Assembly: GCA_035327825.1 (NCBI GenBank)
Contig: DAOLCO010000004.1
Location: 5,950 to 69,949 of the forward strand
Direction of reading: 5' to 3'
Origin: Oligoflexia bacterium
GTDB lineage: Bacteria > Bdellovibrionota_C > UBA2361 > SZUA-149 > DAOLCO01
DNA: 64,000 bases
Shown: positions 9,355 to 45,194 of the stretch, piece by piece
Layout of the letters: each line of letters opens with the position of its first letter
Position numbering within the stretch: the stretch's first letter is position 1
Program-made: the position numbers and the translations under genes
Notes under the pieces: generated by a model
Seen by the model: the letters and a program-made list of their open reading frames with translations, nothing else
Databases searched by the model: none
What the model was told of the DNA's origin: nothing

Positions 9355-9396
9355 AAGTTAATACAGTTTAAGTTAATACAGCTTAAGTTAATAAAG
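9355..9396. repeat. three tandem ~15-nt copies (AAGTTAATACAGYT) in the rpmI-rplT spacer
   Basis: Copies start at 9355, 9370 and 9385, immediately upstream of the rplT SD AGAGGG. Confidence 0.6.
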
Positions 9397-9404
9397 AGGG
9401 TATC

Positions 9405-9824
9405 ATGCGGGTTAAAAGAGGCGTTAAAGCCAAGAAAAGAAGAAGCAGTGTATTTGAACGGGCCAAAGGCTTTCGTGGTCGTTCAAAAAATACCATCCGT
9501 CAAGCCAGCAGTCGCGTGGATAAGGCAATGCGGTACATGTACCGTGATCGAAAGAGGAAAAAAGGTGACTTTCGAGCAATCTGGATACAGAGGATTAATG
9601 CTGCTGCAAGAATAATGGGCATGAACTATAACGGCTTTATAAGTGCACTAAAAGTTGCAGGAGTTGAGCTTGACCGTCGAATGCTCGCAAAAATTGCTGT
9701 AGAGCGACCTGAAGCGTTCAAGGCTGTAGGTGATATTGCTTCTAAACATGTACAACCTTGTAGTGTTTTAAAAGCACAAACCTTTTCTAGTGTTGCGTCA
9801 TCGGGTATTTCTGCTGAAGTTTAG
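9405..9824 (+). CDS. rplT: 50S ribosomal protein L20 (with short C-terminal extension)
   Basis: MRVKRGVKAKKRR...AIWIQRINAAAR is the canonical L20. It sits directly downstream of rpmI. Confidence 0.92.
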   Translation: MRVKRGVKAKKRRSSVFERAKGFRGRSKNTIRQASSRVDKAMRYMYRDRKRKKGDFRAIWIQRINAAARIMGMNYNGFISALKVAGVELDRRMLAKIAVERPEAFKAVGDIASKHVQPCSVLKAQTFSSVASSGISAEV

Positions 9825-9895
9825 TTTGAGTTTCTTCTTGGCTATAGCTTTTAAACTCGTTTAGTCAGGCCTTTGCGATCAATACAGGTGTTCTC

Positions 9896-16674: not shown

Positions 16675-17031
16675 TTAACCTTGATCCGGACTGTTTTCGT
16701 CGCTGGTATTTTCGCTCATATTCTGAGAATAAAGTTTGTTATACCGATCTTCTGAAAGAAATACATCAAAAGGAATAGCAGAGGCTGCCGCTCCAAAGTT
16801 ATTTTTGATTTCTTCCAGCTTTTTCTCAGACAAATTGCCTTTTCCGCGCCTTAGTTCGGACGCATAACAAGGAGAAATTCCAAACTCTTTTGCGATAAAG
16901 GCATCGAGAATACCTTCTTTGGTTGGCACTCTGTATCCGGGCTTCTTAAATCTGAAAATACCACGAAAACATAGCAGTCTTCGTTCTTTATGCAATTCAC
17001 TTGAAGGTGGAGCTCTCTTTTTCTTACTCAT
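16675..17031 (-). CDS. small basic hypothetical protein, possible HTH DNA-binding
   Basis: Likely start at MSKKKR; the ORF track extends to 17085. ILDAFIAKEFGISPCYASELRRGKG looks helix-turn-helix-like. No family recognised. Confidence 0.35.
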   Translation of the reverse strand: MSKKKRAPPSSELHKERRLLCFRGIFRFKKPGYRVPTKEGILDAFIAKEFGISPCYASELRRGKGNLSEKKLEEIKNNFGAAASAIPFDVFLSEDRYNKLYSQNMSENTSDENSPDQG

Positions 17032-17161
17032 TATAAAATACCTAAAAAAACCATGGAACTCTTTCCATCCATACTTTTCACTCAAAAAAAGTCAAAATTA
17101 TGTATTAAAAAGAAACAGGTGACATCCCTTTCACCTTTGAAAAACATTTAGACACAAATTC

Positions 17162-17887
17162 CTACATTTTGGAAAGTAATCTCTTTACATGACTAAGACG
17201 TAACTCGAGATTGGTCAGTTCCTGTCGTAGTATTGAGACTTTTTCGCTAATATCTGAAATATCAACTTCCTTAATCTCAGGTGCAGCAAGAACCACTTTT
17301 GCCAGTCCAGGCAGTTTTTCTTTCAGCTCATCTGGTAAAGGTATTGAGTCATTATGCGAACTTCCAAGTAACTGAAAGAAAATTGCCCAAAGCTCAATTA
17401 ATGAAAACTCGGCAGCTCCTGATAAAGAAAGATCAGAAAGCCAGAGATTTTCTCCTTCACTTCGAATAAATGCGTTCTTTCCAACAAGGATACCATCTGG
17501 TGACGTTTCAAATGGTGGATCAAAGATACTTTTTGATGGCGTAATTTCCTTAACAAACTCAGAATGAAGAAGAGTTCTTGCAGCTTGTATCAGGAATTTA
17601 TTTGTCATGTTCTGAAACGGAAGCCAGTATCCTGGAGCAAGCTCTCCTTGAAGACCCGGAATGTTACATGTTTTGAATGCATCAAATTCATGCCGAGCGG
17701 ATTGAAGCAAAAGAAAAAGCTCATTTGGATTTAGTCGCAGGGGATCATTCTCATCGTAAGCAAATTCAAGGTCTTCATAAGAGTCTCCTTGAATTATAGA
17801 TTCCACGATTTTGTATCCTGAACTTTTACTCTGAACAAGTGCAAGAGCCCGATCATCGTCTAAGTCGACAAATGAAATTGGAGTCAT
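17162..17887 (-). CDS. hypothetical protein (island gene E)
   Basis: Clean 241-aa ORF with no recognisable motifs. A hairpin (17951-17987) separates it from the upstream GHKL gene. Confidence 0.5.
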   Translation of the reverse strand: MTPISFVDLDDDRALALVQSKSSGYKIVESIIQGDSYEDLEFAYDENDPLRLNPNELFLLLQSARHEFDAFKTCNIPGLQGELAPGYWLPFQNMTNKFLIQAARTLLHSEFVKEITPSKSIFDPPFETSPDGILVGKNAFIRSEGENLWLSDLSLSGAAEFSLIELWAIFFQLLGSSHNDSIPLPDELKEKLPGLAKVVLAAPEIKEVDISDISEKVSILRQELTNLELRLSHVKRLLSKM

Positions 17888-17940
17888 TAAAAACCTCCTT
17901 TATAACCAAAATTAAGTAGATGTCACGAAATTTTAGTCCT

Positions 17941-17987
17941 TATATAAAAGGGCGAGATGCGGTTAATATCTAAAACCTCATCTCGCC
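17941..17987 (-). terminator. hairpin (GGCGAGATG / CATCTCGCC, 19-nt loop) followed by CUUUUAUAUA on the minus strand
   Basis: 9-bp perfect inverted repeat 75 bp downstream of the GHKL ATPase stop. The loop is large, so only moderate confidence as an intrinsic terminator. Confidence 0.4.
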
Positions 17988-18025
17988 GGGAAAATCTCCC
18001 AAGAACTAAGAATAGGGACGTGAGA

Positions 18026-19576
18026 CTATTGACCCTTCTTTTTCTTGTTCCTGTGCAAAGTAATCTGCCGTTGTGTCGGAAGCTTGATCCGCCCGTGAGT
18101 GAACCAAAGTAGCACCGAAGGATGCTCTATACAGTTTACAAGGATTGGGAGAGGAGGGAACTCGCCATCGTGGAGAGCTCCGTATCTGCTGATCTGGCTT
18201 AGTACCTCGATAGCGAGAAGAGCCTTTGCTAGTTCTCTCTTTTCATTGCTTCTTCCGCATTCTTCGAAGATAGTTTTCACTGGTCCATATGATTCATTAA
18301 TTGTAATCAATCGAGGATTAGCAACAATAGGATCATTCTCCTGACCGTCTCGCTGGAAAACAATCTTGGGCGGAGTCTTTGTTTTTCTTCCAGTACCAGG
18401 AGGATTTTTAGGGGGCTTTTTACCACCTTTACCTCCACCTTTTCCACCTCGATGTCCATCGTCTTCGTCGTCGTCACCCTCTTCGGAGGTTTTTTTTCGA
18501 CCACCGCCAAGGGTCAGTTCAAACTCGTCAATTAAATAATCGAGCAAGTCCTGATGAATGACGTCGTCAACATGCATTGCATTGTATGCATCCAGAAATT
18601 CATGAAGAGATTCAGGCAGATCTTCTGCAACGATCTCTGAAGCCACGGTATCATCGAAACCGGTTATCTTACTCCTGAATATATCGAATTTAAAGCCTTT
18701 AACAGCCTCAATAATGAGGATTACCTCAGACTGACCGCAGTAGATTCCCGCGGTGTTGACCTTGGCAATTCCACCTCTGTGACTATCCCACCACTCTACA
18801 CACTCTCCATCGGCAGCAAAGCTAAAAGGTGGTGCACTCCATGGACTTACGAGTTCACTTTGCCTTCGGCTTGCCTTTTGAGGACGAATCCCCCAATGAA
18901 GATTAAAAGCTGGACAGGTCGTAGTGCCTTTATAGGCTTTGGTCCCGTTGACCTCGCAAAGAGCTTTGAGAGAGCCAAGGGCACCTACGATCCGAATCTC
19001 TGAACTTCTATCAACGGCGGTAACAACAACCTCGCCAGGAATTGAGAGGTAACGTTGATTCAGAAACTCAATTATCTTCGTTATGCTAAAATTAGCACTC
19101 TTAAGGTGAACTGAAGTGCCTGAGCGCTTATCGAGGGAATCACGTGGAATTGAAACAAATTTTCCAACTCCGTGCTCCGTATCGGGAAGACCCTCAAAGT
19201 GCGTACCATCATCTGTAGCTTTCAGGATGATCTGATAAGCCTGATTATTTTCAGGCGACCTTTGGCAGTGGCTTGTGAATACTGCAGGACCACAAAGGGC
19301 ACTTGCAATCTTGGAGCCGATTCCCATTCTTTGGGCTGCTCCTCTTCCCAATTTACTGGAGCTAGATCCAAGTCCAGTCAGATAAAGGCGCATTTCCTTT
19401 GGAGTCATTCCTTTTCCATTGTCCCGAATCAGGATACCGCCAGATGGGTGTTCTTCAATCCGAACACATGTTGCACCACCGTCGATGGCATTTTGTACCA
19501 TCTCTCGGATTGCAATTAGCGGGTCAATGTCTTCGGGAAGAAGAAATGCCGCAGAAACCAGGTTAAGCTTAGCCAT
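18026..19576 (-). CDS. GHKL/Bergerat-fold ATPase (HATPase_c_3; MORC/Hsp90/MutL-like) with disordered G/K/D-rich linker
   Basis: N-terminal motifs EMVQNAIDGGAT (N-box), IRDNGKGMT (G1) and MGIGSKIAS (G2). C-terminal GGGRKKTSEEGDDDEDDGHRGGKGGGKGGKKPPKNPPGTGRKTK linker. Possibly GC-elevated: ~41-51% in four hand-counted 100-nt windows. Confidence 0.75.
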   Translation of the reverse strand: MAKLNLVSAAFLLPEDIDPLIAIREMVQNAIDGGATCVRIEEHPSGGILIRDNGKGMTPKEMRLYLTGLGSSSSKLGRGAAQRMGIGSKIASALCGPAVFTSHCQRSPENNQAYQIILKATDDGTHFEGLPDTEHGVGKFVSIPRDSLDKRSGTSVHLKSANFSITKIIEFLNQRYLSIPGEVVVTAVDRSSEIRIVGALGSLKALCEVNGTKAYKGTTTCPAFNLHWGIRPQKASRRQSELVSPWSAPPFSFAADGECVEWWDSHRGGIAKVNTAGIYCGQSEVILIIEAVKGFKFDIFRSKITGFDDTVASEIVAEDLPESLHEFLDAYNAMHVDDVIHQDLLDYLIDEFELTLGGGRKKTSEEGDDDEDDGHRGGKGGGKGGKKPPKNPPGTGRKTKTPPKIVFQRDGQENDPIVANPRLITINESYGPVKTIFEECGRSNEKRELAKALLAIEVLSQISRYGALHDGEFPPLPILVNCIEHPSVLLWFTHGRIKLPTQRQITLHRNKKKKGQ

Positions 19577-19589
19577 TTAAGGCCTCCAT

Positions 19590-19698
19590 ATTTAAAAACA
19601 GGAAAAAACGCTTTTTAACCGCAACTCGCGGACACTTGATTTTTAGCTGATGATTTATAGAAAAAAGGTAAACACCAAGTGTCCGCGCAAAAGTTGCG
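19590..19698 (-). terminator. imperfect inverted repeat plus U-run, then GGAGG RBS for the GHKL gene
   Basis: GCAACTCGCGGACACTTG (19621-19638) pairs with CAAGTGTCCGCG...AGTTGC (19676-19697). On the minus strand it is followed by GCGUUUUUUCCUGUUUUU, with GGAGG 9 nt upstream of ATG 19576. Confidence 0.35.
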
Positions 19699-19831
19699 CG
19701 AATCTACCCTGTAAATAAGAGAAAGAGCGATTATGATTACGTTTTGTGATAAGCCGAAAAAGCATATCATAAAACGTAGCGTGTGGAAAACCCACCCGCT
19801 ACTTCGGTAAAGTAGCAAAAACCTAAATAAA

Positions 19832-20758
19832 CTAAGGAGTGGCAGGAGGAGAAAGATTCTGTTCTCTTGCCTTTAGCTCATTAGCCCAGCTTTGAAGTCG
19901 CTGTTGTCTTTTTTCTAGAAGGCCAAGGTGAAGAGTGATTTCTTCCTGATCCGGAGCAATACCTAAAGGACTTGATCTTGCTTTTGCTAGTTCAATTTCA
20001 AGAGCCTTATTTCGTTCTCGAAGCTCTTCAAGCTCTTGAAGAAGGGCAAGGACTCCTTCCTGATATTCGTTCTCAGATTTTCTGAGAGTTTCAATCAATG
20101 AGTTAATTTCCTCCGTGTTAAAAGAAGAAGTAACTGGTATAGGTTGAGCCGATTCTTCTTCTAATAACAAAGAAGGTTCTTCACGATTCAGGATAACGGG
20201 ATCAGGTATTCGAACTCCATCAATATCCCAGCAATCTAGATCATGAACAGGTAGCTGAGGGACCTGATAAATCCCCATTATAGGATCAGAAAAGAGGCGA
20301 ACTGCAAGTTCACACCAAAGATCAAACGATGCGTCAACAGTCCTTCCCTTACTACTTGTAAATTTGAAGTTTCCGGACTTGTGTCTAACGGTTATATGAC
20401 CAATCACAAGGGATTTTTCAGAACTACCAATGTCTTCCCAGGGATTCATTTTTTTCGAGATATCAATGCCCTGCCTTTTTAATTTTCGTAGAGCCTCCTC
20501 GAAATTCCTGATAACCTTCTCCTTGGAGCTGTTACCTGGATTAAAGAGATACTCATTGGTAGCAACAAGCTGATCAGGGACAAGTTTGTTATGATAGTTA
20601 AACCAAAGAACAAAATTGCACCAGCGTGCAAGAATCCTGATGTTCATTACAACATCTCTTGAAAATGTAGGATTCACTTCCCGAAAGACCCATGAGTTAT
20701 CAGATTCCTGCCTTTTGAAATGAAATCCGTTAATGGTCACATGCTCTTTTTGAGTCAT
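19832..20758 (-). CDS. hypothetical protein with C-terminal coiled coil (island gene C)
   Basis: 308-aa ORF. The C-terminal ~80 aa is heptad-like (LQELEELRERNKALEIELAKA). No known family recognised. Confidence 0.5.
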   Translation of the reverse strand: MTQKEHVTINGFHFKRQESDNSWVFREVNPTFSRDVVMNIRILARWCNFVLWFNYHNKLVPDQLVATNEYLFNPGNSSKEKVIRNFEEALRKLKRQGIDISKKMNPWEDIGSSEKSLVIGHITVRHKSGNFKFTSSKGRTVDASFDLWCELAVRLFSDPIMGIYQVPQLPVHDLDCWDIDGVRIPDPVILNREEPSLLLEEESAQPIPVTSSFNTEEINSLIETLRKSENEYQEGVLALLQELEELRERNKALEIELAKARSSPLGIAPDQEEITLHLGLLEKRQQRLQSWANELKAREQNLSPPATP

Positions 20759-20968
20759 TTTTTCTCCTTTATAGGTTAAAACCCTTTTTAATTTTCCACA
20801 CGCACATTTTGATTTGCAATTTTAAAAAGATAAAATCAAAATATGCGTATATTCGCTCTTCTACTCAAAGTAATAATTTTGCTGCAGATTCAGCCAGTTT
20901 ATATAAAACTGGGCGATTGAATTTTGTAATAAAACCGCCCAATGTATGTGAAAATTAACGAGTAGCTC

Positions 20969-22078
20969 CTAAGCTCGAATTATTTCCTCAAGTACTCTGA
21001 AACTTTGGTCTTTGAGATGAGGGAATACTGTTCCTTCCATAAAGATTTTAAGAAGTTCCATTGGCTCCAGTTGCCGGGAAGGACTTGCAACTTTTTCGAT
21101 TGACTTATGGACAGGAGTTTTTTCCTGTTTAAAGCTGACCAAGTCGCTATCCATGATTTGATTAAATGAAAGGATTGGATCTTCAATTTCGTTTGATCCA
21201 ATAATGACCAAAAGAATAAAGCCAAATTGCGAAGGTTCAAGGTTGTCCGAAATTAGAAATTTGCCTTCTGATGCAATGAAAGTATCATCATTTTCAGATT
21301 GCTCACTTCTTAGCTCATCTACAAAACCATGAGGCGTGATGTCAAAGGGAGTCTCAAGTGTTTCTTCGATTCGTAGAATGAGAAGTTTCCTCTTAATTAA
21401 CAGTGTATCATCTTTCGTGAAGAGAATATCCAGAGGGATTTGAAAATCAAAGAGTTCCAAAAGTTCTTCTGGCAACACTTCTCGAAAATCCGAATGACCC
21501 TGGTCTTTCAATTTTGAAAGTATATACTCACGAAGTTCCACCAGAGAACCGAATTCTAGCAGTTCTCCGCTCTTATCTTGTGCCAGTGATTGCTTTTCTG
21601 AAGGCTCACCATAGACCAGAGCAACTGACGAGGGATCAAAGAAGTAATTTTTACCCCTTATAATTTCTCCTGAGAGAACAACCAGGGCGACGTTTATCCA
21701 GTCAGTCCATGGAGCTGATCGAGATAAAATCTTCCATGGAAGTGAGGTAGATTCACGTTCAATAGTTACTATTCCGGAACTAACCTTTAGAAGAGTTCCT
21801 GAATTCACTTGATCTGTTCCAGATCTGAATTGAGCAAGATATTTTGCCTTTTTTAGAAATCGGCTCTCTAGTAACTTTTTAAAAAGAGTTAAAAGATCTT
21901 TGTGAGATAAGTGGTAAGTAGTATGTCCTGCGACTTCATGATAATCCATTCTCCCCCAATCTCGTCTAACAGTTCGAGACTGATACTCGTAAAACATTGA
22001 GTGATCATCATCGGATGTCTTAGGTCCTAGGATGACCTGGATGTGAGGGAGCTTGACTCCTCGTGGAGCTATGCGCAT
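20969..22078 (-). CDS. hypothetical protein (island gene B)
   Basis: 369-aa ORF with acidic stretches. No recognisable catalytic motif. Confidence 0.5.
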   Translation of the reverse strand: MRIAPRGVKLPHIQVILGPKTSDDDHSMFYEYQSRTVRRDWGRMDYHEVAGHTTYHLSHKDLLTLFKKLLESRFLKKAKYLAQFRSGTDQVNSGTLLKVSSGIVTIERESTSLPWKILSRSAPWTDWINVALVVLSGEIIRGKNYFFDPSSVALVYGEPSEKQSLAQDKSGELLEFGSLVELREYILSKLKDQGHSDFREVLPEELLELFDFQIPLDILFTKDDTLLIKRKLLILRIEETLETPFDITPHGFVDELRSEQSENDDTFIASEGKFLISDNLEPSQFGFILLVIIGSNEIEDPILSFNQIMDSDLVSFKQEKTPVHKSIEKVASPSRQLEPMELLKIFMEGTVFPHLKDQSFRVLEEIIRA

Positions 22079-22216
22079 TTTTAAATCCTTTCTTAAAAAT
22101 ATTATTCAATCACCCGTGATAAAAAAGGGTGCTTGAATCTGCAGCATCTACTCTTTATAATTTCAAAGATCAGCTAGTTTTTGTGAAAGGATGCATTTAA
22201 ACCTTTTTACTGATGC

Positions 22217-22262
22217 CAGACTCGGGGACTTGACGAATTGTCTGGTCCCCGAGTTGGCTTTT
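22217..22262. terminator. strong GC-rich hairpin (ACTCGGGGAC / GTCCCCGAGT, 10 bp) followed by TGGCTTTTT on the plus strand
   Basis: Perfect 10-bp inverted repeat with a 15-nt loop, between island genes A and B. The T-run is on the plus strand while the flanking genes are on the minus strand. Confidence 0.45.
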
Positions 22263-22279
22263 TACGAGCAGCGAAATTC

Positions 22280-23230
22280 TTAAACAGTTTTTCTCTCGTT
22301 TCTTATCTGATGAACTCTCTTTCGGAAATTATTGGCATAAAGGCGTTTTCTTCCCGCCTTGCTTTTTTCCTGAAAATCCCTTAGTTCATCCCAAAGCTCT
22401 TTAAGGGTCATTCCATTATCTCCGACTTTACCGTGCTCATTTTTTGTCCTTCTTTCAATGTCTCGGAGCACATCTTCAACATCGGAAAGCTCAGTGCATT
22501 GTCGGATTGAAGCCAGAATTCTGGAGAAGCTTACACCATCAGAGTAGTATCCACCTTGACCTCTCTCTTCCAGAACTTCTTTGGTTTCTAGTGAAAGTTT
22601 GGGCACTCCCCTGGAAATGAGAATTTGATCAATACAGTGAGCAAGATGAGATGCTCCCCCAGCTCGTTCCATTAATTCGGTAACAAGCTTTAGCTCCTTG
22701 TCAATATCATTTGACATCTCACCAACCAGTGCTTTTAGTTCATCAAGTTCAAGCCGTTCTTTTGAAATTTCTTCTCGTTTCTGTTGAAGTTCAGCCTGAA
22801 TTTCCGAACGTTCTTTTAGAAGTTCAGAAAGTTCAGCTTTTAAAGTCTGAATCTGTTCTGCAAGCTTATTAACTTCAGCACGCTTTTGAACAATATCCCC
22901 ATCAATTTTTTGTTCCTGAGGGCTTGTTTCAATTTTTGGTTCCTGTGATGAACCGATTGGCAAAGTTTCGACAAATGAGCGAATCATATCCATGCATTCT
23001 GGCATGATACGACCCTTCAATTCCAGCTGTAACTTTTCGCGAAGAACGGATTCCATCTTCTCCGCAGAGAAACGTTCTGGAACCCTCGCTTCATGCTGTT
23101 GAAGAAGAGCAGAACGAAGATTTGCTAAAGTCTGCGCTTCAAATGAAGATACACTTTTGCACCATGTTTTTACCTCAGGTTGAGACAGGAGCCATACCAC
23201 CGATCCTAATACTTCCGGATTTTTTGTCAT
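22280..23230 (-). CDS. hypothetical coiled-coil protein (island gene A)
   Basis: Long central coiled coil (QKRAEVNKLAEQIQTLKAELSELLKERSEIQAELQQKREEISKERLELDELKAL). Likely start at MTKNPEVL; the ORF track extends to 23290. Confidence 0.5.
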   Translation of the reverse strand: MTKNPEVLGSVVWLLSQPEVKTWCKSVSSFEAQTLANLRSALLQQHEARVPERFSAEKMESVLREKLQLELKGRIMPECMDMIRSFVETLPIGSSQEPKIETSPQEQKIDGDIVQKRAEVNKLAEQIQTLKAELSELLKERSEIQAELQQKREEISKERLELDELKALVGEMSNDIDKELKLVTELMERAGGASHLAHCIDQILISRGVPKLSLETKEVLEERGQGGYYSDGVSFSRILASIRQCTELSDVEDVLRDIERRTKNEHGKVGDNGMTLKELWDELRDFQEKSKAGRKRLYANNFRKRVHQIRNERKTV

Positions 23231-23276
23231 TATATATCCTTTTTGTAAAAACCTATCCATTAAAACCAAAATGCAT

Positions 23277-23327
23277 CCTGCTCCAAACAAGAAAGTAGTA
23301 AATACTACTTTCCACTTTTGAAGCAGG
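23277..23327. promoter_or_regulatory. palindromic operator-like site upstream of island gene A, in the divergent promoter region shared with the sensor kinase
   Basis: Perfect 9-bp arms GAAAGTAGT-AAAT-ACTACTTTC (23291-23312). They are nested in an imperfect outer repeat CCTGCTCCAAA...TTTGAAGCAGG. An AT-rich ~280-bp intergenic region follows. Confidence 0.4.
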
Positions 23328-25448: not shown

Positions 25449-26519
25449 TTGAGGCATAATATGAATGCCTCAAATTGTACTTCTTATATTGCAAGAATTG
25501 TTGGTGAGGAATCTCCTCTAGAGATTCATTCTGCATTTTTCGAAAGAGAAGATCTATTAAACTATCTTGTGGGAACTCGTCTCCATTCAAGCTTGTTGTC
25601 GCAAAGAAAGAGAGTTTTTTCCTTGCTTATGCGTCCAGTATGGAAAGATATAATTTCACTTCTTTCAAATCTTGGTTCAAATAGCATAGAGGGTTACCAT
25701 GTTGACCAGATTGGACGACTGGTAACAAATTTTTCCTTTGGCCTGGAAGGGGAGAAGATTCAGGCTAAATTAAGGGATAACCTTATATTGTGTCTTAAGC
25801 ATCTCATACCCTGGAGAAAGGGACCATTTTGTATTGGTGGAGTAAATATTGATGCAGAATGGGATAGTAATATCAAATACAGTGAACTTAAGAGTGTAAT
25901 TAAATATTTCTCTGGTGCAAGCATACTTGATATCGGAGGAGGAAATGGATATTACGCTTTTAGAATGCGTAAAGATGGGGCTAAATCAGTAATTTCTCTT
26001 GATCCATCAGAAAAATTTTTTTATCAATTTGAACTTTTTCAAAAATTTGCAAAAGACCCCTATACTCAATATGAACCTCTGAGTTTTGAATATGCTGGAA
26101 TGCTTGGCCACAAGTTTGATATTGTATCCTGCATGGGTGTAATATATCATCAGAAAAATCCCCTATATTTGCTTGAGTGCTGCAAAGAAGCATTAAATAG
26201 GAAAAAAGGCACTCTAATACTTGAGTCTATGGTTCTGGACAGTAATAAAAATGAATCTTTCTTTCCACCGGGAAGATATGCAAAAGCAAGAAATGTGTTT
26301 TTTATACCTTCTGTTTTAGCACTAAATGCCATGTGCCAAAGAGCTGGATTCAGAAAAATTGAACTTATAAGCATGCGTTATGTTGGACTTGAGGAACAGG
26401 CGAGGCGAGAATATGCCCCTTATGAGAGTCTTTCTGATTTTCTTGATCCAATTGACAGATCTAAAACTATAGAAGGATATCCCGCACCAGCTCGAGCAAT
26501 TATAGTAGCAAGTTTATGA
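25449..26519 (+). CDS. cmoB: tRNA U34 carboxymethyltransferase CmoB
   Basis: [23 protein letters not shown] aligns with E. coli CmoB [34 protein letters not shown] is the SAM fold; [23 protein letters not shown] is the conserved C-terminus. Confidence 0.88.
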   Translation: [356 protein letters not shown]

Positions 26520-29062
26520 CAAATTTAAACATTGTTGTTGTAAATGATCAAACACTGGAAGAGCAATATCCTTTCAGGAACTATATTAATTCGCCGATAA
26601 TTCGATTAACAAAACCATCCTCTCGCCAAAGTTTTTATGGAAGTACCATGGAAATTAATGCATGGTGCATGTTACCAGAAGAATATGAAACTCCATTATT
26701 AAAAGAACATATTTCATTAAAATGTTTTGTTGCCGCAACGGATCAGTTCGAATCAGTCGCGCTTCATGAAATCATTTATAAAGGTTCTGAAATTTTACCT
26801 CTTTCTCAATGGACCATTTCAAATCCAAAGCAATATTATCTGTCACCAGATAAGAAAATATGGGGGTTCCCACTTCAAATTTCCGGAATTTTAAACCTAT
26901 CATATTTAGATCGTAGTAGAAATTATAACATTTTTCTTCAACTTGAGCTCTTAGGTTCTGTTTGTAACTCCAATCTTGCTACTATTTATCTTGGGAATAA
27001 AGCTGAAATTGCAGGAAAAGTTCATGGTGGTCCCTTACAAATTCTTCCAAGATATATTTTTTCTGATCAACTTATTCTTCAATCATGGGCATTAGAATGT
27101 GATCATAAAATATCTTCTGTTGAAACAATAGTTAAAACAACCGAATCCAAAATAGAACATATTATCAAGAGGGTTTACACCGAAATTGATTTGTCAGGTA
27201 ATTTTTCTGCACTTCCAGATATTCCAGAGTACAAAAAATCTGGTATTGAAACTATTATCCAATTTGACAAGAATTTTTTTGACGGTAAGGATTATCAGGA
27301 CATTTCTATTCACCAGACAGTCCTATCAACTTCTGGAAAGATACATGAATTTTTGCTTGGACTATCCCGTGTCTACAATAAGACCATTCAACCTGTTTAT
27401 ATCAGCAGTGTCAAAACTACATCTGATTTCGTGGAAATATCTGGCTGCCTTTCACGTACGGCTGATATTTCTGATGTTCTTGTTATTAAAGGTAAAGGAC
27501 GTGAAGTTATTATTCCATTATCACATGATGCTAATAAGTTTTGCAAAGATGGATTTGAGCTTTCATGGTCAATCAGCCCAAATTATCCATTAGAATTTGG
27601 ATCTGTATCACTCTCTTCAGAGGATCAATTTTACCTGAAAATTTCAACTGACTCTATAAATTCCTTTGGCGACAGATTTTCCTTATCCAAGAAATCTAGT
27701 TCCGGAACAATAATACTACTTGAAGATTCCTTTTTATCACAATTTAATTTTACTTCTAGTCAAAAAAACAAGGGTTTATTAATTCCCCTGATTAATTCAT
27801 TCAAAAATGCTCTTAATATGCATTCCGGACTTACAAATCATAATGAAACTTTAAAAAACGATTATTTAAAACCATCGCCTGATTCCTCTGGCTTTAAGGA
27901 AGAAAAAAATTTACATTTTTTTATGCATAGCTTTTCTGCAACAGAAGGTGCCCCAATTGTAGCCAGTAATATTATAAAGTCTCTTTCAGAAGTTTCAACT
28001 AATAATCTCCAAATAACAGGATTTCTTGATGGTGATTTGAAAAGTGATCTTTTACCATATGCCACAAAGGTATCTCTTAGAAATGAAGGATCAATGTATT
28101 CTCAATCAACTAACCGTTACCTTAATTTGTTGAGTGAGCTTGTTGCAGGAATAAAGAGAGATAAAACTTCACTTGTTCTCGCAAATGGGCTTGATGCGTT
28201 TATTGCAATTGATGCTGCAAACAGAAGTCTTGTTCCTTCCGTCTGGATAATTCACGAAAGTGTTGATCCTGGTGATAAATATAGAGAACATGGCTTAAAA
28301 ATTCGAACTCATTTTTTATCAGCCCTTAGAAATGCTAGCAGGATAGTATTTGTCAGTGAAACTACCAGAAAATTATATTCAGATCTGATTGACTTTAAGC
28401 AAACGGTAATAATTCCTAATGGCATTGATCAGAAGTCATTTAATCTTCAAATGGATAAATATAACAGAACTAACGAAAGAGAGATGCTAGGCATTGATTC
28501 AGATACAAAGGTATTTCTCTCTGTTGGTACAATTTGCGAGAGAAAGGGGCAGGAGAGAACACTTGCGGAATTTGTACAGTTTAGAGAAAAATTTCCAGAG
28601 ATTAACTGTAAACTTGTTTTGGTAGGTGCCCGACCAATGCCTTTTCTTGAGCTAGTAAAAAAAATGATAATTGATCTTGCCCTTGTTGATCATGTAATAT
28701 TAATACCTGAAACTAAAGAGGTTCATCGCTATTATAAATTAGCAGATGCTTTTGTTATAAATTCAAGAGAAGAATCATTTCCACTTGTTGTACTAGAGGC
28801 TTTTGCCGCCGGACTTCCTGTCATTTCTACCAATGTTTATGGACTTGGAGAAATCCTAATCAACGAAACCAATGCGCTTCTGTTTGATGGAGACAAGAAA
28901 GGTCAACTGGCAGATTTGATGTACAGAATTATTAATGATTGTGGATTATCTGATAAACTCAGTCAGGGTGCTTTAAATTCTTTAAAGGCCAAATACACCC
29001 TGGAAGCAACTATTTCTCAATATAAGCAAACTATTAGAGACTGTTTTTTTTCAAAAAATTAA
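26516..29062 (+). CDS. bipartite protein: ~450-aa N-terminal domain of unknown function fused to a C-terminal GT4 (GT-B) glycosyltransferase
   Basis: C-terminal EESFPLVVLEAFAAGLPVISTNVYGLGEIL is the GT4 signature. The start overlaps the cmoB stop (ATGA), suggesting translational coupling. Confidence 0.7.
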   Translation: MTNLNIVVVNDQTLEEQYPFRNYINSPIIRLTKPSSRQSFYGSTMEINAWCMLPEEYETPLLKEHISLKCFVAATDQFESVALHEIIYKGSEILPLSQWTISNPKQYYLSPDKKIWGFPLQISGILNLSYLDRSRNYNIFLQLELLGSVCNSNLATIYLGNKAEIAGKVHGGPLQILPRYIFSDQLILQSWALECDHKISSVETIVKTTESKIEHIIKRVYTEIDLSGNFSALPDIPEYKKSGIETIIQFDKNFFDGKDYQDISIHQTVLSTSGKIHEFLLGLSRVYNKTIQPVYISSVKTTSDFVEISGCLSRTADISDVLVIKGKGREVIIPLSHDANKFCKDGFELSWSISPNYPLEFGSVSLSSEDQFYLKISTDSINSFGDRFSLSKKSSSGTIILLEDSFLSQFNFTSSQKNKGLLIPLINSFKNALNMHSGLTNHNETLKNDYLKPSPDSSGFKEEKNLHFFMHSFSATEGAPIVASNIIKSLSEVSTNNLQITGFLDGDLKSDLLPYATKVSLRNEGSMYSQSTNRYLNLLSELVAGIKRDKTSLVLANGLDAFIAIDAANRSLVPSVWIIHESVDPGDKYREHGLKIRTHFLSALRNASRIVFVSETTRKLYSDLIDFKQTVIIPNGIDQKSFNLQMDKYNRTNEREMLGIDSDTKVFLSVGTICERKGQERTLAEFVQFREKFPEINCKLVLVGARPMPFLELVKKMIIDLALVDHVILIPETKEVHRYYKLADAFVINSREESFPLVVLEAFAAGLPVISTNVYGLGEILINETNALLFDGDKKGQLADLMYRIINDCGLSDKLSQGALNSLKAKYTLEATISQYKQTIRDCFFSKN

Positions 29063-29305: not shown

Positions 29306-30580
29306 GTGGCGACAAAAGTAAATAACAGTTTAATTGTAGGGCTTGATATAGGTACAACCAAGATTGCAGTTATTGTAGCTGATCGCTTGCCTGGAGGTAA
29401 GGTTGATATAATCGGCATAGGTACTCATCCTTCCGAGGGTCTTCGAAAAGGAGTTGTTATAAACATTGAAGCCACTGTTAATTCCATCCAGCGTGCTATC
29501 GAAGAAGCTGAACTTATGGCCGGTTGTCATATAACTTCAGTGTTTGCAGGAATTGCAGGTTCTCATATTAAGGGATTTAACAGTCATGGCATTGTTGCTA
29601 TTAAAAACAAGGAAGTAAGTCCAAAAGATATAGAAAGAGTCATTGATGCGGCAAAAGCAGTCGCTATTCCAATGGATCGTGAGATCCTTCATATATTGCC
29701 ACAGGAGTACATTGTCGATGAGCAGGATGGCATTCGTGAGCCTCTTGGTATGTCAGGTGTCAGACTCGAAGCTAAAGTACATATTGTCACTGGAGCTGTT
29801 GCTTCAGCCCAAAATATTGTAAAAAGTGCCAATAGAGTTGGCCTTTCAGTTGAAGATATTGTTCTTGAGCCTATAGCATCTGCTGAGGCAGTACTGTCTC
29901 CTGAAGAAAAAGAACTAGGCGTTGCCATGGTTGATATTGGTGGGGGCACAACTGATCTTACAATTTTTCATGCTGGCGCAGTCAAACATACTGCCGTAAT
30001 CCCCCTTGGAGGAAATCATATTACAAATGATATTTCTGCTGGACTAAGAACGCCGGTTTCTTCGGCTGAATTGATCAAGAGGAAATACGGACTTGCTTAC
30101 AGAGCTATGTCCAAGCCTCAGGATACTATAGAGGTTCCATCAACCGGTGGCAGGGATCCTCGAATATTACCAAAACATAGCTTAACTGAAATTATTGAAG
30201 CTCGTCTTGAAGAAATATATACTCTTGTACACAGAGAAATTATTCGTTCAGGATTTGATGAATTCCTTACCGCTGGACTTGTACTTACAGGCGGCACTGT
30301 CCTTCTTGAGGGTTCGGCAGAGTTAGCTGAGGACGTATTTAATCTTCCTGTCAGAGTAGGTTATCCAACAGGAGTTGGTGGGCTTATTGACGTTGTAAAT
30401 TCACCTGCCTTTGCAACTGGTGTTGGACTAGTAATATACGGGGCGCGTAATTCCCAAATAATTGAGTATGGAAGAGGACGTTCATTTACAAATGATAGTT
30501 CATCTGCTCATGGTTTTACTATATTTGAGAGAATAAAAGAACGAATGACATCCTGGTTTTCCGGTGTCCCAACATCCTGA
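29306..30580 (+). CDS. ftsA: cell division protein FtsA
   Basis: GLDIGTTKIAVIVAD, DIGGGTTDLTIF and the C-terminal amphipathic helix ERIKERMTSWFSG match FtsA rather than PilM/MreB. GTG start. Confidence 0.88.
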   Translation: MATKVNNSLIVGLDIGTTKIAVIVADRLPGGKVDIIGIGTHPSEGLRKGVVINIEATVNSIQRAIEEAELMAGCHITSVFAGIAGSHIKGFNSHGIVAIKNKEVSPKDIERVIDAAKAVAIPMDREILHILPQEYIVDEQDGIREPLGMSGVRLEAKVHIVTGAVASAQNIVKSANRVGLSVEDIVLEPIASAEAVLSPEEKELGVAMVDIGGGTTDLTIFHAGAVKHTAVIPLGGNHITNDISAGLRTPVSSAELIKRKYGLAYRAMSKPQDTIEVPSTGGRDPRILPKHSLTEIIEARLEEIYTLVHREIIRSGFDEFLTAGLVLTGGTVLLEGSAELAEDVFNLPVRVGYPTGVGGLIDVVNSPAFATGVGLVIYGARNSQIIEYGRGRSFTNDSSSAHGFTIFERIKERMTSWFSGVPTS

Positions 30581-30613: not shown

Positions 30614-31120
30614 TTGAAGTGTACCAGTTCTCCCCAAAGGTATCTTGATGAATGTCTTTCCGTAATGAAAGCTGATGGTGCGAGGATTACTCGAACCAGA
30701 AAGGCTGTAATAGAATGCCTGGCCGTAACTGAACATCCACTTACTCCTCAGGCTATAGTTCAACTTCTGTCTAAAAATCAGATTGATAATACCAAAAATC
30801 CTGGAAATGCCCCGGAAGTGGAAGAAAATAATTCCATTGATCTTGCCTCTGTTTACAGAATCCTCAAGTATATGAGTTCATTGGGATTAGTTCATCAGCT
30901 TGGTTCTGATGGAGGTTTTTTTCCCTGTACACATGCAAGTTGTAATAGCGGAGTACATCTTCTTACGCGTTGTGAACAATGTGAAAACACTAAGGAAATA
31001 CACATGCCAAAGGATATTACAGCTGGCCTCATCTGGTATATTGAAAACGAAACTGATTTTCTCCCCGAAAGTCATATTCTTGAAATCAGTGGAACCTGCA
31101 ATAATTGTCGATCAATTTAA
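30614..31120 (+). CDS. Fur-family metalloregulator (Fur/Zur/PerR-like)
   Basis: Winged-helix region RITRTRKAVIECL...HPLTPQAIV plus C-terminal Cys pairs (CEQC, CNNC). The probable start is ATG 30665 (MKADGARI). Confidence 0.65.
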   Translation: MKCTSSPQRYLDECLSVMKADGARITRTRKAVIECLAVTEHPLTPQAIVQLLSKNQIDNTKNPGNAPEVEENNSIDLASVYRILKYMSSLGLVHQLGSDGGFFPCTHASCNSGVHLLTRCEQCENTKEIHMPKDITAGLIWYIENETDFLPESHILEISGTCNNCRSI

Positions 31121-31166
31121 CTATAAAATAAGTCATATTCACTTAACCACATTGCATAAGATTCAT

Positions 31167-33518
31167 ATGAACGAAAAAGAAAGAGCTCTTCAATATCACG
31201 AATTCCCGAGACCAGGTAAAATCTCCGTCCAGGCGAGTAAACCCTGTGAAACTGCCTATGATCTTTCACTGGCTTATAGTCCAGGTGTTGCGGTACCATG
31301 TCTTGAAATTGCGGCTGATGAAAGTAAAGTTTACCAGTACACATCCAAGGGAAATCTGGTAGCTGTTATTAGTAATGGAACGGCCGTCCTCGGTCTTGGT
31401 AATATTGGACCAAGTGCCTCCAAGCCAGTAATGGAGGGCAAAGGAGTTCTATTTAAGTCATTTGCCGATATTGATGTCTTTGATCTTGAACTTCAATGTA
31501 ATTCCAAAGAGCACTTGATTGATACCATTGCTGCACTTGCACCAACTTTTGGTGGTATTAATCTTGAAGATATTAAAGCACCTGAATGTTTTGATATTGA
31601 AACTGAACTTCAAAAACGCTTGGATATTCCGGTATTTCACGATGACCAGCATGGAACAGCTATTATTGCAGCAGCAGCCCTGATTAATGCCCTTGAAATT
31701 ACAGGCCGGAAAATTTCCACCATACGTCTTGTAATAAGCGGCGCAGGGGCAGCGGCCCTTGCTTCAGCTAAACTCTTGTTTAGCCTTGGATTCAAACCTG
31801 AAAATCTTCTTTTAGTGGATTCTGTTGGTGTTGTTTATAAAGGCAGAACAGAAGGAATGAATAAGTACAAGGAAGAATTTGCAGTTAAAACAGAAAAACG
31901 CACACTTGAAGATGCTGTCGCAGGTTCCGATGTTTTTTTTGGATTATCTGGTAAGGACATTCTCACACCAAAAATGCTATTAAGCATGTCTAAAAACCCG
32001 ATTGTTTTTGCGATGGCGAATCCTGATCCTGAAATAAATTATGATCTCGCCAAAAAGACTCGTTCTGATGTTATAATTGCTACTGGCAGAAGTGACCATC
32101 CTAATCAGGTGAATAACGTATTAGGGTTTCCGTTTATATTTCGTGGAGCACTCGATGTAAGGGCTCGAGGTATAAATGAGGAAATGAAACTTGCTGCAGT
32201 ATATGCCCTTGCAAGACTTGCTAAAGAACCTGTTCCTGACAGTGTAAAGGCAGCTTATGGTAATACAGATTTCTCATTTGGTGCTGACTATTTAATTCCT
32301 AAACCATTTGATCCAAGAGTCCTTTACTATGTTTCTCCGGCAGTGGCAGATGCTGCCATGAGAAGTGGTATGGCCAGAATTAATCTTGATCTGGAAGATT
32401 ACACTCTTAAACTCAAAGGTGCACAAAATGCAGGAAGAGTTATCCTAAGAACCTGGCATACTATTGCTCGAAGAGGGATAAAGAAGAGAATTGTCTTTTC
32501 CGAAGGTAGTAATGAAAGAGTTGTTAACGCAGCTCACATGGCTGTTTCAGAGGGTGTTTGCAGCCCAGTTCTTGTTGGTAATCGCGAGGCAATTCTCGCT
32601 GAGTTTAAAAAACTTGATTCCTTGCCTGAAGGGATAGAAATAATTGATCCTGAGAATGACAAACGATATTCTGATTTTGTAAAACGCTTTTTTCAAATGA
32701 GGTGCAGAAAAGGTGTTACACTTACTGAAGCATTTCGACTCTTAAAAGAAGATACGATTTTCTCAACCATGCTACTTAATGAAGGTCATGTTGATGGTCT
32801 TATTGGTGGAGTAGACAGAAATTATCCTCAGTCAGTAAAACCACTTTTAGAATTAATTCCCGTTCACGAAGACTATTCTACGACTGCTGGTCTTTATATC
32901 GTATCAATAAAAGATAAAATTTTATTCTTTGCTGATACTACAATCCATCTCTCAATGTCTCCTGATATTCTCGCGGAAATTGCTTTAATGTCAGCAGATT
33001 TTGCAAAATCAATGAATTGTGAACCTCGCATAGCAATGCTTTCTTATTCCAATTTTGGAAGTTCCTCTCACAGTGCTGCCAGAATGGTTAGAGAAGCAGT
33101 TGATATTGTAAGAGGCCGTAACCCAAAACTGACCATTGATGGAGAAATGCAAGCTGATACTGCATCTGATCCATCAATTCTCGCTCAGTATCCATTCTCT
33201 AACCTTTTCATGTCTGATGGAGAAAATACCCCTTCATCAAGTGCAAATGTATTTGTATTTCCCGATATGCAATCCGGGAATATATCATATAAATTACTTC
33301 AACGACTTGGTGGGGCACGTGTCATTGGACCAATACTTCTTGGACTATCAAGACCTGCTCACATACTTCAGCGTCATGCATCAGTAGATGAGATTTTTAA
33401 TATGACTACAGTTGCGGCTGCACAAGCTTCACTTCTTGAATCAGACAAAGAAAACTCGAAAAGGAAAGTTAATGAAAGTACTTCGAAAACACTTTTTCTG
33501 AAAAGATCAGCTGGCTAG
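31167..33518 (+). CDS. maeB: NADP-dependent malic enzyme (malic enzyme domain fused to PTA-like domain)
   Basis: N-terminus [21 protein letters not shown]...SLAYSPGVA matches MaeB, with a ~330-aa PTA-like C-terminal domain. The ORF track's upstream extension to 30900 overlaps the Fur gene and is unlikely to be real. Confidence 0.88.
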
Positions 33519-33526
33519 TATTTCTT

Positions 33527-34972
33527 ATGCTTAAAACAAAGAACCTTGTTATTCTTTTTACTGATATTGCCGGGTATACAGAATATACCAGTAACCGATC
33601 TCGAATTCAAAATCAGCAAATGGTTGATAAGCACAATTCAATCCTTTTGCCTGTTATTCGTCGGTTTAAGGGAAGACATGTAAAAAGTATTGGGGATGCT
33701 CTTTTGCTCACATTCACTTCACCTACTGATGCTATGCGTTGTGCCATGGCAATGCAGGACGCACTGCATGAACATAATCTGGGAGTTCCAGAAGCCGATC
33801 AGATACATATCAGAATCGCTGCAAGCCTTGGCGAGGTTCGTACAACACGAAATGATGTTTTTGGTGAAGCCGTCAATCTTACAAGTAGAATTGAAACAAT
33901 TACACCCTCCGATGAAATTTACTTCAGTGAGGCAGTTTATTTAGCCATGAATAAGGCCGAGGTGCCGGCTGTTGAAATTGGTATGCAGGAATTAAAGGGT
34001 ATTCCAAAGCCCGTAAAAATATTTGCAATACCGCGTTTTGCTGACAGCAAGCTGGTATCTGAACCTCATAGCTCAATTGAAACAGATCCTAGAATTGCTT
34101 TTCCTTATGGTGGAATGCATCTCAATCAGGGATTTTCAAATACAAATTGGATAAAGGGCGTTATTTCATCTGATATTTCAAAAAATTACCCAAAGATTTC
34201 CAGAAATATCCTGATAAGTCTTGCTATTGGCGTAGTTTTGATACTTTTAGTCGGTAATTATGATTTTTTCCTTAAACCACATAATCTTGTAATAAAGGAA
34301 CAGATATCTCAAAATTCTATTAATCCTCTTAATCCCTTAGAACAAACTCTCCCCGCCAGCGAATTATCATCTAGCAAAATATCTTCTCAGAGAGGAAGAT
34401 TAGATGGCCTTATTAAAGATCTAGCAGAACAGAATAATATTACCAAATCAACTTCATCTGGTGATTCATCTGAGTCTGAGAATGCTGTGATTGGAAACAC
34501 AAACTGGATCGTTGTTGATCCGATGATGGATATTAAAGGCCCGTTGTTGCCTCCACCTATGGAAGTTTTACCAGAAAATGATAACAAGCCTAATCTAACT
34601 ACAGGACTTAGCTCTACTGATCCGATAGTTAAAAGTAATCCACAATCAAGTGTTGTCATTGAAACAACAGGTAATACAAAGTCAAAAAAAAATACATTTG
34701 CAGCCACATCAAAGCTGTCTGAAAAGATTAATTCAGACACAGAGAGCAGGAAGCCTTCGAATGTATTTCGTAATATATCTCAAGTCAAAGCCGCATATAA
34801 GGCTAATAAAATTACTAAAGATACTTACAAGCAGCAAGTCAACAGAATTGAATCAGAGTATGAACGCAAGGTTCAGGAGGAAAAATATGCTTATCGATCT
34901 AACAGGATCAGCAAAGATCAATATAAATCAAGAGTCCGTGCACTGAAACGCGAGTACTACGGCGATAGATAA
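33527..34972 (+). CDS. class III adenylate/guanylate cyclase with TM segment and C-terminal SHOCT-like repeats
   Basis: Cyclase domain (LFTDIAGYTEY...GEAVNLTSRIE) at the N-terminus. A TM helix ILISLAIGVVLILLVG lies at ~34190-34260. Two C-terminal repeats ITKDTYKQQVNRIESEY and ISKDQYKSRVRALKREY resemble the SHOCT motif. Confidence 0.8.
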   Translation: MLKTKNLVILFTDIAGYTEYTSNRSRIQNQQMVDKHNSILLPVIRRFKGRHVKSIGDALLLTFTSPTDAMRCAMAMQDALHEHNLGVPEADQIHIRIAASLGEVRTTRNDVFGEAVNLTSRIETITPSDEIYFSEAVYLAMNKAEVPAVEIGMQELKGIPKPVKIFAIPRFADSKLVSEPHSSIETDPRIAFPYGGMHLNQGFSNTNWIKGVISSDISKNYPKISRNILISLAIGVVLILLVGNYDFFLKPHNLVIKEQISQNSINPLNPLEQTLPASELSSSKISSQRGRLDGLIKDLAEQNNITKSTSSGDSSESENAVIGNTNWIVVDPMMDIKGPLLPPPMEVLPENDNKPNLTTGLSSTDPIVKSNPQSSVVIETTGNTKSKKNTFAATSKLSEKINSDTESRKPSNVFRNISQVKAAYKANKITKDTYKQQVNRIESEYERKVQEEKYAYRSNRISKDQYKSRVRALKREYYGDR

Positions 34973-43133: not shown

Positions 43134-43167
43134 TTACTTGCCTTTGCTGAAAGACTGGAATACTTGA

Positions 43168-44841: not shown

Positions 44842-45194
44842 TTTAATTCTAAATCCCGGTACTATGAGGTCTTTAAAAAATACGAATTATTAATTCTGAA
44901 CCGAACGGGCTGTTTTAAAACATCCCCAGGCTCCCTTGGCGGTAGTATTGAAATCAGTGGCGGAAAATACATTAATAGCAACAGGTTACAATTTTCACCA
45001 AGAGCATCTTAGAGAACAATTTAGACAGTTTACAAGATAAGCACAATATCCTACAAACCGAACGACACTTTCCGTATATTAAGCGTCAATTAATATTGCC
45101 AAGACCTACCAGATGATATGAATCGATTCAATCGCAAGCGTGGCGGTATTAATCTTACTATTTATTAACTTAGCTGAACTGGAGCTATAAACTG

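Follow-up and report, generated by a model that had tools for sequence, protein, structure and literature searches.

A cmoB gene coupled to a clade-restricted predicted GT4 glycosyltransferase gene in an uncultured Bdellovibrionota lineage

INTRODUCTION

In Escherichia coli, cmoA lies upstream of cmoB in the same operon, and torZ follows cmoB on the other strand. CmoB uses carboxy-S-adenosylmethionine (carboxy-SAM, or Cx-SAM) to convert 5-hydroxyuridine at the wobble position of tRNA (ho5U34) to uridine 5-oxyacetic acid (cmo5U). The cmoB gene considered here lies in a 64,000-nucleotide (nt) stretch of contig DAOLCO010000004.1, from the GenBank assembly GCA_035327825.1 of an Oligoflexia bacterium; we refer to the whole of this stretch as “the window.” Its surroundings differ from those in E. 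coli: cmoA is unlinked to cmoB in this genome (it is divergent in relatives), and a large gene, encoding an 848-amino-acid (aa) protein that ends in a predicted glycosyltransferase (GT) domain of family GT4, is coupled downstream. Why should the gene of a tRNA-modifying enzyme share bases with a GT gene? An earlier note on this DNA took the coupling to suggest co-function, perhaps in the glycosylation of tRNA or in a glycosylation activity tied to the flagellar regulon, and also allowed for simple scrambling of operons. Here, we show that the pairing of cmoB with this GT gene recurs in related loci, and we weigh what it may mean. The explanation we favor, to which we give about an even chance, is that one transcript carries the genes of a canonical CmoB and of a retaining, cytoplasmic GT4 enzyme that is specific to the clade and acts on a non-tRNA acceptor, probably an envelope glycoconjugate.

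THE PAIRING OF cmoB WITH A GT GENE IS CONSERVED

The TGA stop codon of cmoB (26517-26519) overlaps the ATG start codon of the 848-aa open reading frame (ORF; 26516-26518), and the junction reads gtttATGAcaaat. This overlap, which the earlier note had described as translational coupling, is read directly in the DNA, and cmoB and the GT gene form a predicted two-gene operon with translational coupling at the ATGA. Among the relatives described below, the spacing of the two genes is −4 nt in L009 and L015, as it is in the window, −1 nt in L008, +8 nt in L017, +9 nt in L014 and +33 nt in L006; three longer gaps are found elsewhere. In 7 of 9 loci in which the gap was measured it falls between −4 and +33 nt, as would be usual in an operon.

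Relatives of the GT were sought with aa 1-470 of the protein, using phmmer against 1.84 billion cluster representatives, because a word search with the full-length sequence was swamped by GT4 words. Only 11 proteins were recovered. Ten have the full-length architecture (798-870 aa), and one, P0130 (688 aa), is a weak partial match. Nine related loci came from a pattern scan over 185,579 species genomes, and a few more from a metagenome scan. Seven of the nine (L011-L017) are close relatives, all of them in metagenome-assembled genomes (MAGs), mostly labelled Bdellovibrionales or Bdellovibrionota. For three of these seven (L013, L016 and L017), tblastn detects the GT4 half only, yet each gene also encodes an N-terminal extension of similar length. 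Of the remaining two loci of the scan, one is a generic GT4 in Pelagicoccus and the other a 70-residue fragment.

The adjacency of cmoB and the GT gene holds in 14 of the 16 other loci of the GT family. Where a locus was found through the GT or its N-terminal part, cmoB lies directly upstream in 10 of 12 cases (L009/L011, L013, L014, L015, L016, L017, L045, L046, L047 and the P0128 locus, GCA_041443025.1). The exceptions are L024 and L032, in which a GT2-like gene is followed by the big GT gene with no cmoB upstream; L012, L023 and L025, which end inside the GT, were left out of the count. Where a locus was found through CmoB, the GT gene lies downstream in five of six cases (L006, L008, L009, L022 and L048), and in the sixth, L021, a sigma-54 regulator takes its place. 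Beyond the pair, the flanks vary, with ftsA downstream in the four closest genomes only and ferredoxin, arginyl-tRNA synthetase (ArgRS), PAS kinases and others downstream in the rest. Nothing in the neighborhood is more durable than the cmoB-GT adjacency, which outlasts that of cmoA and cmoB.

At three loci, the big GT4 gene is directly preceded by a gene for a 536-640-aa protein: L022 (6083-7939), L032 (1837-3759) and L024 (2305-3915). In L022 and L032, this partner matches Pfam Glycos_transf_2 (family GT2) at about aa 317-504, preceded by ~300 residues without a Pfam match; the L024 partner has no Pfam match and is 35% identical to the GT2 of L022. In L022, the GT2 gene (618 aa) separates cmoB from the big GT gene. 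No homolog of it was found in the window. The presence of a GT2 partner beside the GT4 enzyme suggests stepwise glycan assembly and, since L024 and L032 lack an adjacent cmoB, the GT module can operate without cmoB alongside.

THE WINDOW CmoB RESEMBLES A CONVENTIONAL ENZYME

The product of cmoB scores above both curated NCBIfam equivalog cut-offs (NF011650, 296.5 vs 209; TIGR00452, 290.1 vs 275), in agreement with the identity given to it in the earlier note. Homology places its start codon at ATG 25461, as do the gene calls in four independent assemblies from this organism; the mechanical ORF opens upstream of this, at TTG 25449. The identity of the protein to E. coli CmoB is 36-43%, according to which span is aligned. 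In the E. coli enzyme, the residues that ligate Cx-SAM's carboxymethyl group are Lys-91, Tyr-200, Arg-315 and, in addition, Lys-110, and Lys-91 is essential for carboxymethyl transfer (Kim et al., PMC4482062). All four residues (E. coli numbering throughout) are invariant in the window CmoB in alignments with E. coli CmoB. Therefore, the window CmoB appears to be built for Cx-SAM, not merely SAM and, since Lys-91 and Tyr-200 are kept along with Arg-315, a normal cmo5U pathway is expected. We take the protein to be a conventional enzyme, predicted to convert ho5U34 to cmo5U in tRNA via carboxy-SAM; this is a component of the favored reading, which as a whole we hold to be evenly balanced between right and wrong.

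One residue departs from this picture. Arg-202 binds phosphate in E. coli CmoB and is 98.3% conserved (PMC4482062), whereas the window CmoB has Gln at this position (window ~nt 26151-26153). None of the 11 GT-linked CmoBs compared has Arg here (each carries Q, S or H instead), and seven of the eight others retain it, among them a Bdellovibrionales CmoB with no downstream GT. Arg-202 is not family-defining, and membership of the window protein in the CmoB family stands despite the Gln. The loss of Arg-202 may be a simple clade marker, or it may reflect co-adaptation with the GT. GT-linked CmoBs retain the neighboring basic residue, 203, and show no difference from the other CmoBs in the net charge of the N-terminal region. 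The N-terminal ~100 residues, proposed as a tRNA platform in the E. coli enzyme (PMC4482062), align poorly in the window protein, with the NCBIfam match starting at profile position 67.

These departures are among the reasons to consider that CmoB has been repurposed, i.e., that CmoA and CmoB carboxymethylate the sugar or glycan of the GT via Cx-SAM, besides or instead of tRNA. The loss of Arg-202, a putative tRNA-phosphate contact, from every GT-linked CmoB and the poor alignment of the proposed tRNA platform are consistent with such a change, as is the conserved neighborhood of cmoA, cmoB and the GT gene. Cx-SAM also has one non-tRNA use, by the phage DNA carboxymethyltransferase CmoX (PMC12783734). 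However, the proteins exceed the CmoB equivalog cut-offs, the N-terminal charge is the same whether or not a GT is linked, and the basic residue 203 is still in place. No second cmoB turned up (none was searched for), and this copy is probably the housekeeping tRNA enzyme. We consider a repurposed CmoB extremely unlikely.

A GT4 ENZYME WITH A NEW N-TERMINAL MODULE

As the earlier note stated, the C-terminal ~390 aa of the 848-aa protein are those of a GT4 retaining glycosyltransferase, an activity predicted from its domains and motifs. Two Pfam domains exceed their cut-offs: Glycos_transf_1 at aa 651-819 (108.1 bits vs 26.4) and Glyco_transf_4 at aa 533-638 (31.0 vs 28.5). The EX7E motif, E753...E761 (nt 28772-28798), is invariant in 17 family members, and the GT family alignment shows E752/E753, E761 and R676-K677-G678-Q679 to be invariant. 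The GT-B two-Rossmann domain, the EX7E motif and the basic R-K-G-Q phosphate-binding motif are shared with BshA, MshA, PimA/PimB, WaaG and archaeal GlgA, which are also soluble or peripheral proteins of the cytoplasm; the 460-residue extension of three immunoglobulin (Ig)-like modules and a basic linker that is described below is absent from all of them.

The protein falls in no curated GT4 family. Among the NCBIfam equivalogs scored, which include BshA, MshA, TuaC, EpsE, PelF, VpsD, TviE and PEP-CTERM stp2/stp3, no cut-off is reached; BshA is best, at 92.2 vs 273.7, and the rest fall further below. Among solved structures, the protein matches generic GT4 enzymes best (BshA 5d00, 94 bits). With all NCBIfam GT scores far below cut-off, it belongs to no curated exopolysaccharide or lipopolysaccharide GT equivalog, which, like the conserved adjacency, lends support to the earlier note's guess that the coupling might be meaningful. 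Neither a transmembrane segment (hydropathy over 19 residues peaks at 1.58, within the catalytic core) nor a signal-like N-terminus was found in the GT, which is predicted to be cytoplasmic. A role as a defense- or conflict-system GT4 was also considered and was rejected, since the Pfam GT4-conflict match (30.4 bits) lies under the stronger Glycos_transf_1 match and PADLOC gave no match for the GT or for the upstream genes without family assignment. In its neighborhood, the GT gene has the lowest G+C content (0.33-0.35 at 26001-28000 vs ~0.38 for the window overall), a mild reduction that is compatible with relaxed constraint or older acquisition.

The earlier note saw no recognizable motif in the N-terminal ~450 aa. 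Indeed, aa 1-460 have no Pfam match, and even at E <= 1 the N-terminal domains of ten family members match only noise. Structure prediction is more informative. A single-sequence AlphaFold2 (AF2) model of the full-length GT reached a predicted local distance difference test score (pLDDT) of only 35; the N-terminal part, modelled with a 10-sequence alignment, reached a mean pLDDT of 71.5 and contains three beta-sandwich modules, followed by a linker (aa 411-458) with pLDDT <50. Foldseek matches to this model are tandem-Ig proteins. The N-terminal ~460 aa are, in the model, three Ig-like sandwiches. Of 17 family members, 16 have an acidic Ig region and an acidic GT domain (pI ~5), and all 17 have a strongly basic linker of ~45-60 residues (pI 9.3-12.0), a combination that speaks against the binding of RNA and would fit a peripheral association with the membrane. 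The three-Ig N-terminal module is new on a GT4 enzyme, and the GT family that carries it is uncharacterized and confined to one clade of uncultured Bdellovibrionota. The GT2 protein of L022 was considered as a possible homolog of the Ig-like N-terminus of the GT4 protein; this was rejected (hhalign probability 0.2).

An N-terminal substrate module joined to a C-terminal GT-B domain recalls known protein GTs. It may be, then, that the enzyme is a cytoplasmic protein O-glycosyltransferase: the Ig-like modules would recognize a protein substrate, such as flagellin, pilin, an adhesin, or a cell-division or translation factor, that is glycosylated before export or assembly, and the linkage to cmoB would be incidental. 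Ig-like folds commonly serve protein-protein contacts, and a TarM-type GT4 with a beta-sandwich insert is among the matches in the PDB. TarM, GtfA/GtfB and SdgA/SdgB all combine a GT4 core with a beta-rich accessory module that is thought to bind the acceptor. However, their sequence similarity to the window GT is limited to the catalytic C-terminal half; the accessory part of the window GT is N-terminal, consists of three tandem Ig-like modules, and has no detectable sequence similarity to theirs. The NCBIfam matches to SdgA and SdgB are weak (50 and 42 bits), far under the cut-off of 800. The genomic context is similarly divided. Polysaccharide export genes were not found nearby, a FlgM-like gene is near the GT gene in the window and in L006, and FtsA is encoded downstream in four loci. 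On the other hand, flagellar, pilus and ftsA neighbors are not kept throughout the family, no gene for a candidate substrate accompanies the GT gene, and the partner GT2 at some loci is more typical of glycan assembly. We regard a protein acceptor as unlikely.

THE ABSENCE OF cmoA AND THE LINK TO flgM ARE LOCAL

The earlier note reported no cmoA. This is correct for the 64-kb window, in which tblastn with the CmoAs of three relatives, E. coli CmoA and L006 CmoA found no cmoA gene, and incorrect for the genome. A CmoA, P0141 (TIGR00740, 228.8 vs cut-off 193.3), is encoded on contig DAOLBI010000009.1 of assembly GCA_035324615.1, an Oligoflexia MAG in which the window genes sit on contig DAOLBI010000005.1. 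The P0141 cmoA is also found on contigs from SRA runs SRR2107178/9, which carry the window genes too. By these matches, a complete CmoA and CmoB set is present in the genome of the window. The co-function that the earlier note read into the coupling has a mixed outcome: the adjacency in other loci speaks for it, and the presence of cmoA elsewhere, with the normal cmo5U pathway expected from it, does not.

In relatives, a 253-258-aa methyltransferase encoded divergently upstream of cmoB is CmoA (TIGR00740, 213 and 238 vs 193.3), with 33-34% identity to E. coli CmoA. Overall, cmoA adjoins cmoB in most loci, but neither in the window nor in L017. The gene order in L006 is flgM, HATPase_c_2, Peripla_BP_6, cmoA, cmoB, GT, ftsA. 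The neighbors of the P0141 cmoA are Peripla_BP_6 and HATPase_c_2, the same block that lies beside cmoA-cmoB in L006; therefore, one rearrangement, removal of these two genes together with cmoA, explains the junction of flgM and cmoB in the window.

That cmoB follows flgM, as the earlier note had it, holds as a matter of position. The upstream ORF is, however, only a borderline FlgM (Table 1), and the linkage is not conserved. The FlgM homolog of L006 is 58% identical and lies three genes away on the opposite strand, and no FlgM-like gene was found at the other loci, so that flgM abuts cmoB in the window only. This pattern speaks against the earlier suggestion of a flagellar-regulon glycosylation. 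Judged from the gene orders, the absence of cmoA from the window and its flagellar link are local accidents of this genome.

TRANSCRIPTION AND TRANSLATION SIGNALS AROUND THE PAIR

A perfect 9-bp hairpin lies over the start of cmoB. Its arms are TTGAGGCAT/ATGCCTCAA, with a Shine-Dalgarno (SD)-like GAGG in the 5' arm and the cmoB ATG in the 7-nt loop. The predicted fold has ~13 pairs and an energy of -13.1 kcal/mol (z = -2.55). No equivalent hairpin was found in the five relatives checked (L006, L008, L009, L014 and L015). The element may be a lineage-specific translational control element, or it may be a scar of the flgM-cmoB rearrangement. A sigma-70 scan of the region gave 16 sites vs 17.9 expected from shuffles, so there is no excess, and no sigma-28-like promoter was seen by eye between flgM and cmoB.

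On the other side of the pair, ftsA is probably a separate transcription unit from cmoB-GT. Besides the window, ftsA lies downstream of the GT gene in L006, L008 and L009 only; it is not downstream in L014, L015, L016, L017 or L022. FtsA is 83-86% identical among relatives whose CmoB (~50%) and GT (~31%) are far more diverged. In the window, ftsA stands alone and is followed (30614-34972) by a Fur-family gene, a malic enzyme-PTA fusion and a gene for a guanylate-cyclase-domain protein. The FtsZ signature GGGTG[ST]G was not found anywhere in the 64-kb window.

WHAT THE LINKAGE MAY MEAN

Glycosyltransferases can act on tRNA. QTMAN (GTDC1) and QTGAL (B3GNTL1) are vertebrate tRNA queuosine glycosyltransferases, giving mannosyl- and galactosyl-queuosine, respectively; to our knowledge, they are the only known case of GTs acting on a tRNA wobble base. 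QTMAN is classed as GT4 and QTGAL as GT2, the same two families that are found beside cmoB in L022. This likeness is an analogy only, since organism, base and chemistry all differ and no homology to the window GT was detected beyond the generic GT4 fold. GTDC1 has a specific N-terminal domain besides Glycos_transf_1, and this domain was not found in the window GT (Pfam, E <= 0.01).

By this analogy, the window GT might add a sugar to the wobble nucleoside of CmoB (cmo5U or ho5U34) or to a neighboring position. Such a coupling would accord with the adjacency in 14 of 16 other loci while other flanks change, with the overlap of start and stop codons, with the persistence of the pair where cmoA has moved off (the window and L017), and with the loss of Arg-202 in 11 of 11 GT-linked CmoBs and its retention in seven of eight others. 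In addition to the vertebrate precedent, there is one from phage DNA, where carboxymethyl groups provide the handle for additional modification (PMC12783734). However, the GT is acidic in both globular parts, and its additional domains are Ig-like rather than of any known RNA-binding fold; Pfam shows generic GT4 domains only; and at two loci GT2 and GT4 genes occur without an adjacent cmoB. For a GT4 enzyme, forming a glycosyl ester with a carboxylate would be out of the ordinary, no report of such a nucleoside was found in the literature, and the clade is narrow, so that repeated adjacency may stem from few independent events. None of our tests supports the tRNA glycosylation raised in the earlier note, and we give it a very slim chance.

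A broader version of these ideas is that cmoA/cmoB and the GT gene, sometimes with the GT2 gene, make up one pathway, leading to a glycosylated wobble uridine or to a carboxymethylated glycan. The precedents for both products are by analogy only, and no literature was found that links CmoB or cmo5U with glycosylation. For this one-pathway reading, covering both products, we see a slim chance.

The favored reading, in which the GT acts on something other than tRNA, would work as follows. CmoB would use carboxy-SAM made by the CmoA encoded elsewhere in the genome. The GT-B domain would take a nucleoside diphosphate (NDP)-sugar as donor, and the three acidic Ig-like modules would bind or position the acceptor or mediate oligomerization. 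The basic linker would tether the GT to the anionic surface of the inner membrane, and the acceptor would be membrane-proximal: a lipid-linked glycan, a glycolipid or another envelope glycoconjugate. Both genes would be served by one promoter, and a break between them would silence the GT. Because the GT gene would have no promoter of its own, selection against breakage of the operon can keep the two genes adjacent without linked chemistry. The acidic surfaces, the accessory folds of a kind seen in carbohydrate enzymes, the recurring GT2 and the two loci without an adjacent cmoB all speak for this reading, and on their strength we would expect it to prove correct about half the time. The class of acceptor, the membrane association and the absence of biochemical coupling are the parts of it that we infer, whereas the gene identities, the architecture, the class of fold, the cmoA elsewhere in the genome and the conserved adjacency are shown by the analysis.

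Several observations weigh against this reading. Adjacency on the scale seen here is a classic signature of functional association. It is kept among CmoBs that are as little as 38% identical, a value no higher than that to E. coli CmoB, and with identity of the GT N-terminal part of 17-28%, and the pair is intact where cmoA has become detached, in the window and in L017. The replacement of Arg-202 in every GT-linked CmoB could be co-adaptation. In addition, no lipid-carrier priming enzyme, flippase, ABC exporter or sugar-nucleotide synthesis gene was found beside the GT gene at any locus, and the polysaccharide cluster of the window (40.9-51 kb) is 12 kb off, with no link to the GT. Finally, membrane binding by the linker is something we purely infer, and AF2 confidence is low in that region.

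FEATURES OF THE LOCUS AND OTHER OBSERVATIONS

The coordinates of the features discussed above are collected in Table 1.

Table 1. Features at and around the cmoB-GT pair, in window coordinates
Feature	Position	Strand	Basis or remarks
FlgM-like ORF, 82 aa	25136..25384	+	borderline: Pfam FlgM 25.2 vs 25, NCBIfam FlgM 21.9 vs 40.75
Perfect 9-bp hairpin over cmoB start	25449..25473	+	terminator-like match, RNA fold
cmoB, predicted tRNA ho5U34 carboxymethyltransferase, 352 aa	25461..26519	+	NCBIfam equivalogs and conserved residues
ATGA start/stop overlap of cmoB and GT gene	26516..26519	+	sequence gtttATGAcaaat
Clade-specific predicted glycosyltransferase, 848 aa: three Ig-like modules, basic linker, GT4 domain	26516..29062	+	
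Predicted Ig-like beta-sandwich module 1, ~aa 25-160	26588..26995	+	conserved P34, W50, S152-N153
Predicted Ig-like beta-sandwich module 2, ~aa 170-290	27023..27385	+	conserved G171-G172, P178, W191, P234-D235, G243, G282
Predicted Ig-like beta-sandwich module 3, ~aa 294-402	27395..27721	+	conserved G310; lower confidence, block pLDDT 50-83
Basic, predicted-disordered linker, ~aa 411-460	27746..27895	+	consensus 'KSxxxxLxxKGLLPxK'
GT4 catalytic domain (GT-B fold, retaining; predicted)	27899..29059	+	Pfam and EX7E
ftsA	29306..30580	+	TIGR01174 481 bits vs 175.85; 243-nt gap after GT gene

Three other regions of the window stand out. First, a run of six genes on the minus strand (16675-23290), encoding proteins of 136, 241, 516, 308, 369 and 336 aa, has almost no family assignment. 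The 516-aa protein matches HATPase_c_3 only, and in the NCBI assembly its gene is split into two calls (235 + 277 aa); the 336-aa protein is coiled-coil-like, with weak LmuB/JetC-type matches. PADLOC found no system in this run. Second, the polysaccharide-type cluster at 40911-51071 has no demonstrated link to cmoB-GT. It encodes a 740-aa split GT2, a 557-aa protein without a Pfam match, a 616-aa GT1-family protein, a methyltransferase, a UDP-glucose/GDP-mannose dehydrogenase, an NAD-dependent epimerase/dehydratase and a 260-aa GT2. Third, a gene at 14175-15761 encodes a CarD-family protein of 528 aa, in which the CarD RID and C-terminal domains (aa 371-522) are preceded by a 370-residue N-terminal extension without a Pfam match. 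Outside the window, locus L032 encodes a response-regulator receiver domain fused to LpxC (476 aa; 8415-9845), downstream of its GT2-GT4 pair, ferredoxin and purA.

IMPLICATIONS

The cmoB-GT pair is a defined marker for an uncultured Bdellovibrionota lineage. What more it means depends on why the two genes stay together. If the linkage is mere operon inheritance, the outcome is a tidy annotation of a clade-restricted GT4 family, together with the correction of a “missing” cmoA. A functional linkage would point to hypermodification of the tRNA wobble position or to a new use of carboxy-SAM. Should CmoA, CmoB and the GT belong to one pathway, the loss of Arg-202 in every GT-linked CmoB would mark co-adaptation. 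A pathway of this kind that ends on tRNA would provide the first glycosylated wobble uridine and the first glycosylated tRNA base in bacteria; one that ends on a glycan would be the first cellular use of Cx-SAM outside tRNA.

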